Below, piece by piece: positions 3,009-39,280 of a stretch of 64,000 bases of DNA. Numbering within the stretch: the first letter of the stretch is position 1; every line of letters starts with the position of its first letter. Under the pieces are notes generated by a model. The model ran no database searches and was not told where the DNA came from. It saw only the letters and a list, made by a program, of their open reading frames with translations. The DNA is from Escherichia coli (GTDB lineage: Bacteria; Pseudomonadota; Gammaproteobacteria; Enterobacterales; Enterobacteriaceae). The position numbers were made by a program, and so were the translations under genes. The stretch lies in NCBI RefSeq assembly GCF_003790525.1, contig NZ_CP033635.1; one strand, 5' to 3'.

Positions 3009-4070
3009 ATGCTCGAAATGTTGATGCAATGGTATCGCCGCCGTTTTAGCGACCCGGAAGCGATTGCCTTGCTGGTTATTTTAGTTGCCGGATTTGGCAT
3101 TATCTTTTTCTTTAGTGGCCTGCTTGCTCCGTTGCTGGTGGCTATTGTGCTGGCCTATTTGCTGGAATGGCCAACCGTGCGCCTGCAATCTATTGGCTGC
3201 TCCCGCCGCTGGGCGACGTCGATTGTATTGGTGGTTTTCGTCGGTATATTGCTACTGATGGCGTTCGTGGTGCTGCCTATCGCCTGGCAACAGGGCATCT
3301 ACTTAATCCGCGATATGCCGGGGATGCTCAATAAGCTTTCTGACTTTGCCGCCACGTTGCCGCGCCGCTATCCGGCGTTAATGGACGCGGGCATTATTGA
3401 TGCAATGGCCGAAAATATGCGCAGTCGGATGCTGACCATGGGCGATTCGGTGGTGAAAATTTCCCTCGCCTCGCTGGTCGGTTTGCTGACCATAGCCGTC
3501 TATCTGGTGCTGGTGCCATTGATGGTCTTCTTCCTGCTGAAAGACAAAGAGCAGATGCTGAACGCCGTTCGTCGGGTGCTGCCGCGTAACCGTGGGCTGG
3601 CAGGACAGGTGTGGAAGGAGATGAATCAACAAATCACCAACTATATCCGCGGCAAAGTGCTGGAGATGATCGTGGTGGGGATCGCCACCTGGCTGGGGTT
3701 CTTACTCTTCGGGCTGAACTATTCGCTGCTGCTGGCGGTGCTGGTCGGCTTCTCGGTACTTATTCCGTACATTGGTGCATTTGTGGTGACCATTCCGGTG
3801 GTTGGCGTGGCGCTATTCCAGTTTGGTGCTGGCACGGAATTCTGGAGCTGCTTCGCGGTGTATCTGATTATTCAGGCGCTGGACGGCAACCTGTTAGTAC
3901 CTGTGTTGTTCTCCGAAGCGGTTAACCTGCATCCGCTGGTCATTATTTTATCAGTAGTGATCTTCGGTGGTTTGTGGGGATTCTGGGGCGTATTCTTCGC
4001 CATTCCATTGGCGACGCTGATCAAAGCCGTGATTCACGCCTGGCCCGATGGGCAAATCGCGCAAGAATAA
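3009..4070 (+). CDS. perM: AI-2E family inner-membrane permease
   Basis: 353-aa highly hydrophobic ORF matching YfgO/PerM; divergent from bepA. Confidence 0.85.
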   Translation: MLEMLMQWYRRRFSDPEAIALLVILVAGFGIIFFFSGLLAPLLVAIVLAYLLEWPTVRLQSIGCSRRWATSIVLVVFVGILLLMAFVVLPIAWQQGIYLIRDMPGMLNKLSDFAATLPRRYPALMDAGIIDAMAENMRSRMLTMGDSVVKISLASLVGLLTIAVYLVLVPLMVFFLLKDKEQMLNAVRRVLPRNRGLAGQVWKEMNQQITNYIRGKVLEMIVVGIATWLGFLLFGLNYSLLLAVLVGFSVLIPYIGAFVVTIPVVGVALFQFGAGTEFWSCFAVYLIIQALDGNLLVPVLFSEAVNLHPLVIILSVVIFGGLWGFWGVFFAIPLATLIKAVIHAWPDGQIAQE

Positions 4071-33382: not shown

Positions 33383-35362
33383 ATGAATCGTTTTATTATG
33401 GCCAACAGTCAGCAATGTCTGGGTTGTCATGCTTGTGAAATCGCCTGTGTCATGGCTCACAATGACGAGCAACATGTCCTGAGCCAACGCCATTTTCATC
33501 CCCGAATTACGGTTATCAAACATCAGCAGCAACGTAGTGCAGTGACCTGTCACCATTGTGAAGATGCGCCCTGCGCCCGTAGCTGCCCTAATGGCGCAAT
33601 CAGCCACGTTGATGACAGCATTCAGGTCAATCAGCAAAAGTGTATTGGCTGTAAATCCTGCGTGGTGGCCTGTCCATTTGGTACGATGCAAATCGTCCTG
33701 ACACCCGTTGCGGCTGGCAAAGTTAAAGCCACGGCGCATAAATGCGACCTTTGTGCAGGGCGCGAAAACGGTCCTGCCTGTGTCGAAAATTGCCCGGCGG
33801 ACGCGCTGCAACTGGTCACTGACGCCGCACTCTCCGGCATGGCGAAATCCCGCCGCTTACGCACCGCACGTCAGGAACATCAACCGTGGCATGCCAGTAC
33901 CGCGGCACAAGAAATGCCGGTAATGAGTAAAGTCGAGCAAATGCAGGCAACGCCCGCGCGTGGCGAGCCGGACAAACTGGCGATTGAAGCGCGCAAAACC
34001 GGTTTTGATGAAATTTATCTGCCATTCCGTGCCGATCAGGCACAACGGGAAGCCTCGCGTTGCCTTAAGTGTGGCGAGCACAGCGTTTGTGAATGGACCT
34101 GCCCGCTGCATAACCATATACCGCAGTGGATTGAACTGGTGAAAGCAGGAAACATCGACGCCGCCGTCGAGCTTTCTCACCAGACCAACACCCTGCCGGA
34201 AATTACCGGACGCGTTTGCCCGCAAGACCGTTTGTGTGAAGGTGCCTGTACTATTCGCGATGAGCACGGCGCAGTAACTATCGGCAACATTGAACGCTAC
34301 ATTTCAGATCAGGCGTTGGCGAAAGGTTGGCGTCCTGACTTAAGTCATGTCACCAAAGTGGACAAGCGAGTGGCGATTATCGGTGCGGGTCCGGCAGGGC
34401 TGGCCTGTGCGGATGTTCTGACCCGCAATGGCGTAGAGGTGACGGTGTACGATCGCCATCCAGAAATCGGTGGCTTGCTCACTTTCGGCATTCCTTCTTT
34501 CAAACTGGATAAATCCCTGCTGGCACGCCGTCGGGAAATCTTCAGCGCGATGGGGATTCACTTCGAACTCAATTGTGAAGTGGGTAAAGATGTCTCTTTG
34601 GATTCGCTTTTGGAACAATACGACGCGGTCTTCGTTGGCGTAGGCACTTACCGTTCCATGAAAGCGGGTTTACCCAATGAAGATGCGCCGGGCGTTTATG
34701 ACGCCCTGCCGTTCCTCATCGCCAACACTAAACAGGTGATGGGACTCGAAGAGCTACCGGAAGAGCCGTTTATCAATACCGCCGGACTCAACGTCGTGGT
34801 ACTGGGCGGCGGCGACACCGCGATGGACTGTGTGCGTACCGCGCTGCGCCACGGCGCGAGTAACGTCACCTGCGCTTATCGTCGTGATGAAGCTAACATG
34901 CCAGGCTCGAAGAAAGAGGTGAAGAACGCCCGCGAAGAGGGGGCCAACTTTGAATTTAACGTCCAGCCGGTGGCGCTTGAGCTGAATGAGCAAGGTCACG
35001 TTTGCGGAATTCGTTTCCTGCGCACGCGTCTTGGCGAGCCGGATGCCCAGGGGCGTCGGCGTCCAGTGCCGGTGGAAGGCAGTGAATTTGTCATGCCAGC
35101 CGACGCGGTGATTATGGCGTTTGGCTTCAATCCGCACGGGATGCCGTGGCTGGAGTCGCACGGTGTAACGGTAGACAAATGGGGTCGCATCATCGCGGAT
35201 GTGGAAAGCCAGTACCGTTACCAGACCACCAATCCGAAAATCTTCGCTGGTGGTGACGCCGTGCGTGGTGCGGATCTGGTGGTTACCGCAATGGCAGAAG
35301 GACGTCATGCGGCACAGGGGATTATTGACTGGCTGGGGGTAAAATCAGTCAAATCTCACTGA
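33383..35362 (+). CDS. aegA: Putative oxidoreductase: N-terminal 4Fe-4S ferredoxin domain fused to a glutamate-synthase-small-subunit-like FAD/NAD(P) domain
   Basis: 659-aa ORF with multiple Cys clusters and a Rossmann motif (IIGAGPAGLA). Confidence 0.85.
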   Translation: MNRFIMANSQQCLGCHACEIACVMAHNDEQHVLSQRHFHPRITVIKHQQQRSAVTCHHCEDAPCARSCPNGAISHVDDSIQVNQQKCIGCKSCVVACPFGTMQIVLTPVAAGKVKATAHKCDLCAGRENGPACVENCPADALQLVTDAALSGMAKSRRLRTARQEHQPWHASTAAQEMPVMSKVEQMQATPARGEPDKLAIEARKTGFDEIYLPFRADQAQREASRCLKCGEHSVCEWTCPLHNHIPQWIELVKAGNIDAAVELSHQTNTLPEITGRVCPQDRLCEGACTIRDEHGAVTIGNIERYISDQALAKGWRPDLSHVTKVDKRVAIIGAGPAGLACADVLTRNGVEVTVYDRHPEIGGLLTFGIPSFKLDKSLLARRREIFSAMGIHFELNCEVGKDVSLDSLLEQYDAVFVGVGTYRSMKAGLPNEDAPGVYDALPFLIANTKQVMGLEELPEEPFINTAGLNVVVLGGGDTAMDCVRTALRHGASNVTCAYRRDEANMPGSKKEVKNAREEGANFEFNVQPVALELNEQGHVCGIRFLRTRLGEPDAQGRRRPVPVEGSEFVMPADAVIMAFGFNPHGMPWLESHGVTVDKWGRIIADVESQYRYQTTNPKIFAGGDAVRGADLVVTAMAEGRHAAQGIIDWLGVKSVKSH

Positions 35363-35429
35363 TAGCCTGCGCAGACAAACCCGACTTCACAGCGTAAGAT
35401 AATTGTTCATTTCGCGCTGTGGAGTCGGT

Positions 35430-36005
35430 ATGACGCAACAAATCACCCTCATTAAAGACAAAATTCTCTCCGATAACTATTTCACCCTGCACAACATTAC
35501 TTACGATCTCACGCGCAAAGATGGCGAAGTTATCCGTCATAAACGTGAAGTTTACGATCGCGGTAATGGTGCGACGATCCTCCTGTACAACGCGAAGAAA
35601 AAGACCGTGGTTCTGATTCGTCAGTTCCGTGTCGCTACCTGGGTTAATGGCAATGAAAGCGGGCAGCTGATTGAAACCTGCGCCGGGCTGCTGGATAACG
35701 ACGAACCGGAAGTGTGCATTCGCAAAGAAGCAATTGAAGAGACGGGCTATGAAGTGGGCGAAGTGCGCAAATTATTTGAACTGTATATGTCGCCTGGCGG
35801 TGTGACTGAGCTAATCCACTTTTTTATCGCCGAATACAGTGACAGCCAGCGCGCTAACGCCGGTGGTGGTGTCGAAGATGAAGATATTGAAGTGCTTGAG
35901 CTGCCGTTCAGCCAGGCGCTGGAGATGATTAAAACCGGCGAGATACGTGACGGTAAGACGGTGTTATTGCTTAACTATTTGCAAACGTCACATTTAATGG
36001 ACTGA
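35430..36005 (+). CDS. nudK: GDP-mannose pyrophosphatase (Nudix hydrolase)
   Basis: Track ORF 35403-36005; the ATG at 35430 ([13 protein letters not shown]) has a GGAG RBS; Nudix box ([21 protein letters not shown]). Confidence 0.85.
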
Positions 36006-36130
36006 AAAATAACAATAATATTTCGTTGTTTATTATTGGCTCAATCCGACAAATCCGATTGAGCCGCGCTACCTGCGCAACGAAGATACGACTTGTGCTG
36101 TTTGTTTGAACTTCTGGGGTCGTACCGTCC

Positions 36131-37174
36131 ATGCGCTATCGCATTTTCCTTCTCTTTTTTTTCGCTTTGTTGCCGACGTCTTTGGTGTGGGCGGCACCAG
36201 CGCAACGGGCGTTTTCCGACTGGCAGGTCACCTGTAATAACCAAAACTTCTGCGTGGCGCGTAATACGGGCGATCATAACGGACTGGTGATGACCCTGAG
36301 CCGCAGCGCCGGGGCGCATACCGATGCCGTTTTACGTATTGAGCGCGGCGGGTTGAAGTCGCCGGATGCGTCTGAAGGGGAGATAGCGCCACGGCTGCTG
36401 TTAGATGGTGAGCCGTTGGCGTTAAGTGGTGACAAGTGGCGGATTTCACCATGGTTACTAGTAACCGATGATACGGCAACCATCACCGCGTTTTTGCAGC
36501 TGATTCAGGAAGGGAAGGCAATCACCTTACGCGATGGCAATCAGACCATTTCTCTGAATGGCTTAAAAGCGGCGTTGTTGTTTATTGATGCTCAGCAAAA
36601 GCGCGTTGGCAGTGAAACCGCGTGGATAAAGAAAGGGGACGAACCGCCGCTCAGCGTACCGCCCGCGCCTGCGCTGAAAGAGGTCGCGGTGGTTAACCCA
36701 ACGCCGACGCCACTCTCACTCGAAGAACGCAACGATTTGCTGGATTATGGAAACTGGCGGATGAATGGTCTGCGCTGCTCGCTTGATCCGTTACGTCGTG
36801 AGGTGAATGTCACTGCGCTGACCGATGATAAAGCACTGATGATGATTAGCTGTGAGGCAGGGGCCTATAACACCATTGATTTGGCATGGATTGTGTCGCG
36901 TAAAAAGCCGCTAGCCTCGCGCCCGGTTCGGTTGCGTTTGCCGTTCAACAACGGTCAGGAGACGAATGAACTGGAACTGATGAACGCAACATTTGATGAG
37001 AAATCGCGTGAACTGGTGACCTTAGCGAAAGGGCGCGGATTAAGCGATTGTGGCATTCAGGCGCGCTGGCGCTTTGACGGTCAGCGTTTTCGCCTGGTGC
37101 GTTACGCCGCAGAACCCACCTGCGATAACTGGCATGGGCCAGACGCCTGGCCCACGTTGTGGATCACCCGTTAA
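36131..37174 (+). CDS. ypfG: Periplasmic DUF1176-family protein
   Basis: 347-aa ORF with signal peptide (MRYRIFLLFFFALLPTSLVWA); synteny. Confidence 0.8.
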   Translation: MRYRIFLLFFFALLPTSLVWAAPAQRAFSDWQVTCNNQNFCVARNTGDHNGLVMTLSRSAGAHTDAVLRIERGGLKSPDASEGEIAPRLLLDGEPLALSGDKWRISPWLLVTDDTATITAFLQLIQEGKAITLRDGNQTISLNGLKAALLFIDAQQKRVGSETAWIKKGDEPPLSVPPAPALKEVAVVNPTPTPLSLEERNDLLDYGNWRMNGLRCSLDPLRREVNVTALTDDKALMMISCEAGAYNTIDLAWIVSRKKPLASRPVRLRLPFNNGQETNELELMNATFDEKSRELVTLAKGRGLSDCGIQARWRFDGQRFRLVRYAAEPTCDNWHGPDAWPTLWITR

Positions 37175-37217
37175 ACAAAATCCCAGATGCGCCCCTAAAA
37201 AGCGCACAGACTGTCTC

Positions 37218-37255
37218 CTCGCCCCTCTGGGGAGAGGGTTAGGGTTAGGGGAACA
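37218..37255. repeat. G-rich 38-bp intergenic repeat, copy 1 (CTCGCCCCTCTGGGGAGAGGGTTAGGGTTAGGGGAACA)
   Basis: Near-identical (36/38) to a second copy at 50611-50648; contains the CCCTCT-GGGG-AGAGGG hairpin; sits between ypfG and the tktB 3' end. Confidence 0.6.
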
Positions 37256-37276
37256 TACAGCATCCGGCGATCACCA

Positions 37277-39280
37277 TCAGGCACCTTTCACTCCCAGCAC
37301 CTTATGCGCTTTTGCCACAATATTCTCGGCGGTAAAGCCAAAGAACGGGAACAGCTTATCCGCCGGAGCAGATTCCCCGTAACCCGTCATCCCGACAATT
37401 GCCCCTTTCAGACCAACATACTTGTACCAGTAATCGGCGATGCCTGCTTCCACCGCTACGCGAGCCGCAACGTTAGAAGGCAACACCGACTCCCGATATT
37501 CCTCATCCTGGGCGTCGAAAATATCGGTCGAGGGCAGGGAAACTACGCGTACATTGCGACCTTCTCCCGCTAATTTCTCTGCCGCTTGCAGGGTGATTTC
37601 CATCTCTGAACCGGTGGCAATCAAAATAATATCTGGCTTACCGCCGCTGTCTTTCAACACATAACCACCACGAGCAATCTCTTTAACCTGATCCGGCGTA
37701 CGTTCCACCTGGGCCAGATTCTGCCTGGAGAGGATCAGTGCCGTCGGTCCGTTGTGGCGCTCAACCGCCAGCTTCCAGCCCACCGCTGCTTCCACCTGAT
37801 CGCACGGTCGCCAGGTGCTGAAATTTGGCGTTAAGCGCAGACTGGCCAGTTGCTCAACAGCCTGGTGCGTAGGACCATCTTCGCCCAGGCCAATTGAGTC
37901 GTGGGTATAAACCATAATCTGCCGCGCTTTCATCAGTGCCGCCATCCGCGCGGCGTTACGGGCGTATTCAACAAACATCAGGAACGTCGCGGTATACGGC
38001 ACAAAGCCGCCGTGGTGCGCAATGCCGTTGGCGATAGCGGTCATGCCAAATTCACGCACCCCGTAGTGAATGTAGTTGCCCGCCGGATCTTCCTTCAGCG
38101 AAACAGAACCTTTCCAGATGGTCAGGTTGCTGGGAGCCAGATCCGCCGAACCGCCGAGCAGCTCCGGTAGCATAGGCCCGTAAGCGTTAAGCGTATTTTG
38201 CGAAGCCTTACGGGTAGCGATTTTCGCCGGATTCGCCTGCAACTCATTGATATATTTCTGAGTCGTTTTCTCCCAGTCCTTCGGTAAACCACCGCTCATC
38301 CGACGGGTAAACTCTTCTGCCAGTTGCGGATGAGCCTTTTTATAGGCGGCAAACTTCTCATTCCAGCTCTGCTGCGCTTTTTCGCCTTTTTCGCGGGCAT
38401 CCCAGGCGTGATAAATCTCTTTAGGGATCTCAAATGGCGGATGGTGCCAGCCCAGTTTTTGCCGTGCCAGCGCCACTTCTTCTTCCCCCAGTGGTGCGCC
38501 GTGCGCCTCTTCCTTACCTGCTTTATTCGGCGAACCAAAGCCAATCACCGTACGGCAGATAATCAGCGACGGCTTATCTTTCACGCTTTGCGCTTCAAGG
38601 ATCGCTTCCTTCACCGCCTGCGGATCGTGGCCGTCGATCTCGTGGATCACATGCCAGTGATAGGCTTCAAAACGTTTTGCTGTATCGTCGGTAAACCAGC
38701 CTTCGGTTTCACCGTCGATGGAAATACCGTTGTGATCGTAAAAACCAATCAGCTTGCCCAGTCCCAGCGTGCCCGCCAGCGAACAGACTTCGTGGGAAAT
38801 ACCTTCCATCAGGCAGCCGTCGCCCATAAACACATAGGTGAAGTGATCGACAATTTCATGATCTGGCTGGTTAAACTGCGCCGCCAGCGTACGCTCTGCT
38901 ATCGCCAGCCCGACGGCGTTCGCCAAACCTTGTCCAAGTGGACCGGTGGTGGTTTCAACACCAGGCGTATAGCCGATTTCCGGGTGACCAGGGGTTTTCG
39001 AATGCAACTGACGAAAGTTCTTCAGTTCTTCCAGCGGCAGGTCGTAACCGGTCAGATGCAGCAAACTGTAGAGCAGCATCGACGCGTGACCGTTGGAAAG
39101 AATAAAGCGGTCGCGATCATACCAGGTTGGGTCGGTAGGATTATGTTTAAGAAAATCGTTCCACAGCACTTCGGCAATATCAGCCATGCCCATCGGCGCG
39201 CCGGGATGACCAGAATTGGCTTTTTGTACCGCATCCATACTGAGTGCGCGAATCGCATTGGCAAGGTCTTTTCGGGACAT
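37277..39280 (-). CDS. tktB: Transketolase 2
   Basis: Track ORF 37277-39343; the ATG at 39280 ([31 protein letters not shown]) has a GGAGTG RBS; 667 aa. Confidence 0.95.

Follow-up and report, generated by a model that had tools for sequence, protein, structure and literature searches.

A stem-loop between nudK and ypfG of Escherichia coli probably holds the core of an RcsB-type ypfG promoter

The nudK-ypfG spacer and its inverted repeat

The DNA analysed here is a stretch of 64,000 nt from Escherichia coli, referred to below as the window. According to its open reading frames and BLAST matches, the genes around the region of interest follow the order aegA-nudK-ypfG-tktB, with tktB on the minus strand (Table 1). 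The plus strand of the window corresponds to the minus strand of MG1655, and an MG1655 coordinate is obtained by subtracting the window position from 2618908. The hairpin region is identical in MG1655, where 36038-36065 becomes 2582843-2582870 on the minus strand.

Table 1. Features of the nudK-ypfG region in window coordinates; features called predicted or candidate rest on sequence comparison.
Feature	Position	Strand	Remarks
nudK CDS	35430..36005	+	GDP-mannose hydrolase, upstream neighbour; stop codon 36003-36005
Promoter-like match	36015..36044	-	TTGAGC 36044-36039, 18 bp, TATTAT 36020-36015; 9/12 consensus match in a scan, speculative
Inverted repeat	36038..36065	.	9-bp arms GGCTCAATC / GATTGAGCC, inner GA/TC pairs around CAAA
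Conserved 20-bp block ATCCGAYAAATCYGATTGAG	36044..36063	+	Hairpin loop and 3' arm; candidate operator and first five bases of the predicted -35
RcsB-box-like 14-mer TCCGACAAATCCGA	36045..36058	+	Promoter-distal half TCCGA, promoter-proximal half TCCGA
Predicted -35 hexamer TTGAGC	36059..36064	+	Most of the hairpin 3' arm; TTGAG (nearly) invariant
Conserved octamer GAAGATAC	36082..36089	+	Predicted -10 hexamer GAAGAT at 36082-36087
Predicted ypfG transcription start	36091..36096 (~36094)	+	~7 nt past the T at 36087, by analogy with rprA
Shine-Dalgarno-like GGGG run to ypfG ATG	36116..36133	+	GGGG 36116-36119, ATG 36131-36133; CYGGGGTTGTRCC...ATG conserved
ypfG CDS	36131..37174	+	DUF1176, 347 aa; gene that the element would serve

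A sequence-only reading of this DNA had described a 9-bp stem after nudK, and the letters bear it out: 36038-36065 reads GGCTCAATC-CGACAAATCC-GATTGAGCC, i.e., two perfect arms around 10 nt, located 33 nt past the nudK stop codon and 66 nt ahead of the ypfG start codon. The lack of a T-run, pointed out in the same reading, is confirmed as well, since the stem is followed by GCGCTACCTG on the plus strand and AATAATAAAC on the minus strand, and the terminator scan made no call. In the predicted fold, two further inner pairs (G36048-C36055 and A36049-T36054) form beyond a C.C mismatch and leave a CAAA loop; the inverted-repeat search reports 12-nt arms that are 92% complementary. The hairpin has a free energy of -14.1 kcal/mol as plus-strand RNA and -16.0 kcal/mol as minus-strand RNA, with z-scores of -6.0 and -5.2, respectively, and none of the 200 shuffled sequences folds equally well.

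Perfect 9-bp repeats with loops of 3-12 nt were counted at 10 separate sites across the 64 kb (18 nested hits), as against a mean of 3.2 hits in first-order Markov shuffles. A perfect 9-bp repeat of this type is uncommon, neither unique nor exceptional. The window holds no second copy of the element: the search returned a single match with up to 3 mismatches allowed. As an imperfect palindrome between genes, it resembles REP/BIME elements; it differs from them in being single-copy per genome (median) and in being tied to one gene, with a position that is conserved across genera. Nor is its sequence known to resemble the REP consensus.

The region was found in 5425 of the 5426 complete E. coli genomes, at a median of one place per genome. 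It is missing from one genome and present twice in another, where one of the copies lies on a record of plasmid type. A sample of four variant E. coli genomes shows three changes; two of them (36035 and 36069) fall outside the hairpin, and the third affects 36056, an unpaired pyrimidine position. The A-to-G change at 36035 is present in many E. coli.

Several other repeats and ends were observed in the neighbourhood. The AT-rich stretch 36007-36038 contains an 8-bp inverted repeat CAATAATA/TATTATTG (36013-20 and 36031-38). Beyond ypfG, a G+C-rich repeat-like stretch ctcgcccctctggggagagggttagggttagggg lies between ypfG and tktB at 37205-37250. The Term-seq data of Adams et al. 2021 include a 3' end at MG1655 2581778 (+), labelled antisense to ypfG, which corresponds to approximately 37130 in the window and adjoins the hairpin GGGCCAGACGCCTGGCCC (37137-37154; region 37125-37160, minus strand). 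The tktB transcript thus seems to end ~147 nt beyond its own stop codon, within the 3' end of the convergent ypfG.

Conservation of the spacer across Enterobacteriaceae

A search with NudK yielded 80 loci from Enterobacteriaceae, one per species, whose spacers were aligned (loci are numbered L001 onwards where they have to be told apart). In 77 of the 80 loci ypfG follows nudK, usually after a spacer of ~125 bp. The most conserved part of the spacer is the 20-bp block ATCCGAYAAATCYGATTGAG, which has no mismatches in 47 of 78 loci and a single one in a further 14. Over the 74 non-Escherichia loci its mean identity to E. coli equals 0.91, as against 0.38 for the preceding 20 nt and 0.35 for the following 18 nt; the flanks and the spacer around the conserved islands stay at 0.35-0.39, the level of otherwise unalignable DNA.

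The block covers the loop and the 3' arm of the hairpin, and conservation of the two arms is sharply different. Over the 78 nudK-ypfG loci, the 3' arm is fixed whereas the 5' arm GGCTCA is free to vary, and compensatory changes are absent. An outer stem of 8-9 bp is restricted to Escherichia (the window and L002-L004) and L080, and 7 outer pairs are formed in Kluyvera L078, L028, L038, and L040. When each species is folded separately, most genera cannot form the outer six pairs, and a minimum free energy of -1.4 kcal/mol is typical. The fraction of alignment cells that are paired is 67.2% versus 68.8% in column shuffles, and the covariation score is 0.033 versus 0.044; the observed values are reached by 500 of 500 shuffles. 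The hairpin is not a conserved RNA structure. Of the conservation in related genomes that the sequence-only reading had proposed to look for, the 20-bp block of loop and 3' arm is thus kept and the base pairing is not.

The 5' arm GGCTCA extends the block in a lineage-specific manner, being present in Escherichia and a small number of other lineages, and according to the per-species folding several lineages have partial extensions of the operator symmetry. It may be neutral, it may extend the symmetry of the operator, or it may create a mirror-image -35 hexamer on the minus strand.

Presence of the block follows ypfG rather than nudK. The block is found wherever ypfG sequence is kept (78 of 78 loci, a few of them with only piecewise matches to the gene), and is absent or decayed in all 3 loci that lack ypfG (E. 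albertii L005 and Pluralibacter L051 and L056). In these 3 loci tktB directly follows nudK, which is intact where the block is lost. The remnant in E. albertii, GGCTCACTCCGGTTGAACC, carries a 9-bp deletion that removes one ATCCGA unit and three substitutions, next to a nudK that is 97% identical. Since the block is lost along with ypfG while nudK stays, it belongs to ypfG and not to nudK. In the gap between nudK and tktB of the E. albertii locus (L005:3074-3245), a REP-like sequence GCGGATGCGGCGTAAACGCCTTATCCGCC was also observed.

The position of the block relative to nudK is informative too. In Klebsiella, Raoultella, and relatives (L023, L037, L043, L052, L062, L063, L065, L070, L074, L076, and L077), the 20-mer begins inside nudK, 6 to 19 nt ahead of the end of the frame, and overlaps the stop codon (~3050-3090 of these loci), and the nudK-ypfG spacer is ~35 nt shorter. 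Such an overlap with the end of nudK is easy to accommodate for a DNA site and awkward for an element of the 3' UTR.

Many genera (Enterobacter, Lelliottia, Leclercia, and others, e.g., L032, L039, L044, L048, and many more) have a second box-like unit, TCAGATAAATCTAT, just upstream of the conserved box, ~13 bp 5' of the 20-mer. It has one mismatch to the RcsB consensus and does not occur in E. coli.

A predicted ypfG promoter and its candidate activator box

Downstream of the block, the alignment contains a second conserved island, the octamer GAAGATAC, which is identical in 55 of 73 loci (mean identity 0.89). In 70 of the 73 loci exactly 18 nt separate it from the 20-mer, and the sequence of this gap varies. 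Such a pair of conserved blocks, kept at a constant distance while the sequence between them drifts, is the signature of a promoter. The layout is of the sigma-70 type, with TTGAGC, 17 bp, and GAAGAT. The -10 hexamer is a poor one, matching 3 of 6 bases, which is why a simple scan does not call the promoter, although positions A2 and T6 are both present. These two -10 positions weigh most for a sigma-70-type polymerase. Variants of the hexamer (GAACAT, GAATAT, GATGAT, CAGGAT, and AAAGAT) always keep A2 and A5-T6 (xAxxAT) while positions 3 and 4 vary, and the few loci with deviating spacing (16 or 18) retain an xAxxxT hexamer. The block is therefore likely to be, judging by its layout, a pseudo-palindromic operator joined to the -35 hexamer of an activator-dependent ypfG promoter of an ordinary kind, with the start placed by prediction. 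The start of ypfG is not listed in the supplementary tables of transcription start sites that were searched.

RcsB is the response regulator of the Rcs envelope-stress phosphorelay. The box of its homodimer, TN(G/A)GAN4TC(T/C)NA, has been defined structurally and by EMSA (PMC7913699). The 14-mer TCCGACAAATCCGA agrees with this consensus at 7 of the 8 specified positions, the distal R being C here, and a box with one mismatch is low in information: according to the background of the window, ~0.045 such boxes are expected by chance per 125 bp. The departure from the consensus is itself conserved, as the distal R position is C or T in nearly all orthologous loci (TCYGA, not TNRGA). The distal half-site may be deliberately weak, asymmetric, or shared with a partner or another protein. 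The box ends at 36058 and the predicted -35 begins at 36059, a position suited to activation given the predicted +1.

Upstream regions of genes that change together with ypfG were scanned for the same box. Boxes with at most one mismatch are found for 9 of 11 genes, with none for ypeC and ymgI. In total, the 11 other upstream regions hold 11 such boxes in ~2.06 kb, and the background of the 64-kb window is 0.36 boxes per kb with no exact match. Exact boxes belong to rprA, ycfJ, ivy, and ymgG, and those of bdm and others have one mismatch. Like ypfG, the genes rprA, ivy, ygaC, and ycfJ have TCYGA as the promoter-proximal half.

Among known RcsB targets, rprA is the closest in architecture. In MG1655 it has the exact box TGAGACGAATCTGA followed by TCGACG, 17 bp, TACTAT, and a start 7 nt further on. 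Both genes thus combine a 14-bp box, a -35-like hexamer that begins with T, a spacer of 17 bp, and a -10 with A2 and T6 retained, and the register is the same: the rprA box is centred ~42 bp upstream of the annotated +1, and that of ypfG at approximately -42.5 from the predicted start. The proximal half of the rprA box, AATCTGAT, is the version found in ypfG of Salmonella and Klebsiella. The two differ in the distal half, where rprA matches the consensus exactly (TGAGA...TCTGA) and ypfG has TCYGA, and in the start, which is annotated for rprA and predicted for ypfG. The RcsA-independent set (bdm, ivy, ycfJ, ymgG, mliC, ygaC, and osmB) also resembles ypfG: these genes are co-expressed with it, both in one i-modulon and under Rcs-inducing conditions, their upstream regions contain a box that departs from the consensus at no more than one position, and in several cases the box abuts a -35-like hexamer. 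Unlike in ypfG, the distance from box to ATG varies among them, and none has the 28-bp palindrome of E. coli ypfG.

Published expression data place ypfG in the same group of genes. Under a LolCDE inhibitor it is induced 38-44-fold together with osmB, ycfJ, bdm, wza, ypeC, ygaC, and ivy (PMC5105897). In an O157:H7 isolate with a disrupted rcsB it is reduced 4.6-fold, along with ycfJ (-25-fold) and ypeC (-24-fold) (PMC5343319). Its i-modulon comprises bdm, ivy, mliC, osmB, ycfJ, ypeC, ygaC, yaiY, ymgD, ymgG, and rcsA, and is separate from the colanic-acid RcsAB i-modulon (PMC6892915). Complement induces ypfG together with ycfJ and ygaC (PMC4145685), and ypfG responds with ypeC both in E. coli and in Klebsiella. 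The literature thus reports dependence of ypfG expression on RcsB and the Rcs system, which could be indirect. The main text of two transcriptome papers that report a change of ypfG does not mention nudK, which fits a promoter of its own for ypfG. As for the site itself, neither RcsB binding data nor a paper describing it was found in the searchable literature.

Taken as DNA, then, the loop and the 3' arm of the stem-loop would form the core of the ypfG promoter, whose box would most likely bind a dimer of phosphorylated RcsB; we give this reading, including the inferred binding and start, a probability of roughly 0.6. The core would be a 14-bp pseudo-palindromic activator box abutting TTGAGC, followed by the 17-bp spacer and the weak GAAGAT. 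A phosphorylated RcsB dimer would occupy a class II position, as at rprA, and would bring RNA polymerase to a promoter that is poor without it. Transcription would begin at ~36094, downstream of the entire hairpin, which would leave the hairpin outside the ypfG mRNA. Its inner five pairs (ATC/GAT and GA/TC) could then be a by-product of the box symmetry, and the outer six (GGCTCA/TGAGCC) a lineage-specific mirror image of the -35 flank. Among the functions suggested by the sequence-only reading, a protein-binding palindrome comes closest to this evidence; the conserved unit, however, is the 20-bp stretch of loop and 3' arm, not the 28-bp palindrome.

Alternative readings and what the element means

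The same operator and promoter may be served by a regulator other than the RcsB homodimer: either a heterodimer in which an auxiliary partner of RcsB occupies the non-canonical distal half, or an unrelated helix-turn-helix protein that binds as a dimer to the tandem WATCYGATW units (36043-36051 and 36052-36060). The conserved pyrimidine in the distal half, which violates the RcsB consensus, speaks for such a regulator, as do the composition of the block from two 9-bp ATCYGAT-type mini-palindromes with a 9-bp period, the extension of conservation past the 14-bp box, and the TCAGATAAATCTAT unit directly upstream in many genera. On the other hand, the bases past the box are accounted for by the -35 hexamer, the register is identical to that of rprA, and expression tracks RcsB status and the RcsA-independent Rcs gene set. 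We know of no alternative regulator whose motif fits the block better, and consider this reading rather unlikely.

RNA-level explanations fare worse. The hairpin does resemble an intrinsic terminator in being stable, fairly G+C-rich, and placed shortly past a stop codon, but it has no U-rich tract on either strand, no call in the terminator scan, no mapped 3' end among the entries listed, and no conservation of pairing, and an intrinsic terminator was rejected. An Rfam scan of 35000-37500 at permissive E-values returned only noise, e.g., a plant miRNA model with E = 8.6 over the hairpin. As a role confined to E. coli, the hairpin might serve at the 3' end of the nudK mRNA as a pause, or might block 3' exonucleases once Rho has terminated transcription, and so set the stability of the message. 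Ends of Rho-dependent transcripts are reportedly often trimmed back to stem-loops. Such a role would suit a hairpin that is stable by itself (z = -6 on the plus strand), lies 33 nt past a gene that no intrinsic terminator follows, and is still transcribed on any nudK read-through RNA. Within it, the only change in the four variant E. coli genomes is at 36056, already unpaired; its invariance in E. coli, however, is uninformative because the diversity of the species is too low. The 3' ends of Rho-dependent transcripts have been mapped by Dar and Sorek 2018 (PMC6061677). Against an RNA role stand the absence of conserved pairing and of compensatory changes outside Escherichia and the loss of the hairpin in E. 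albertii, which retains nudK. In the Term-seq data of Adams et al. 2021, moreover, no 3' end lies at MG1655 25828xx-25829xx among the entries listed, where expression is low, and nudK is not among the entries listed either; no nudK 3' end was found in the other supplements searched. The Rho-dependent pause or RNA-stability element of the sequence-only reading thus finds no support, with an unconserved helix, covariation below shuffles, and no 3' end in those tables, and a function of this kind in E. coli alone appears improbable.

Even more doubtful is a bidirectional site. The near-perfect 28-bp palindrome of Escherichia might allow one activator dimer to fire both ypfG (plus strand, ~36094) and, through the mirrored TTGAGC and TATTAT of the minus strand, an antisense RNA that enters nudK from ~36008. 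The promoter scan does match these hexamers at 9 of 12 positions with an 18-bp spacer, and the box centre (36051.5) would be ~43.5 bp from the antisense start, mirroring the ypfG side. The substrate that NudK hydrolyses, GDP-mannose, is a precursor of colanic acid, which would supply a functional rationale for antisense control of nudK. If the reading were true, envelope stress would induce ypfG while reducing the GDP-mannose hydrolase just when GDP-mannose is required for colanic-acid synthesis. The match, however, is a consensus match in an AT-rich stretch and exists in one lineage only, and the scan gave 2 promoter-like hits versus 1.9 expected in shuffles. Nor is there an antisense 3' end or any other nudK record among the entries listed by Adams et al. 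2021, and the two transcriptome papers checked leave nudK unmentioned in their main text.

Several further candidates were tried and rejected. For the interval from the -10 to the ATG, RNAalifold gave only 2 pairs and no covariation, so that a conserved 5' UTR or anti-Shine-Dalgarno structure finds no support there. In the per-species folds of this interval the mean z-score is -0.47 when the RNA is of the read-through type and +1.12 when it begins at the predicted start, the latter RNA being, if anything, less structured than shuffled controls. In the window, an inverted repeat was observed between 36075-36092 and 36119-36136 (14/18 complementary) that pairs the -10 region with the Shine-Dalgarno run and the ATG; such pairing could arise only in nudK read-through RNA and would hide the start codon there; as a conserved feature it is supported neither by RNAalifold nor by z-scores across genera. 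By eye, a sigma-28 promoter with CCGATAA as its -10 has no conserved -35 at the proper distance and a T/C variation within the motif, a -10 within the 20-mer (GATAAA or TAAATC) lacks key bases and would not account for the remainder of the block, and a Fur box over the block matches ~7/15 of the 7-1-7 consensus. A Fur box has instead been predicted upstream of ypfG (PMC4145685), and the AT-rich stretch 36007-36037, which is not conserved outside Escherichia, may underlie that prediction.

With an RcsB-type promoter as the preferred reading, a terminator-less hairpin is reassigned to the control region of ypfG, which encodes a conserved periplasmic DUF1176 protein. No general principle is altered by the element. 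As a practical matter, palindromic activator sites that abut a -35 hexamer can mimic RNA hairpins, and comparison across genera tells the two apart. The locus would also add an RcsB-type site that is clean, strongly conserved, and atypical in its distal half. Since ypfG is among the more strongly induced genes under envelope stress, the precise operator, -35, and -10 would turn the transcriptomic correlation that places it in the Rcs set into a direct regulatory link.
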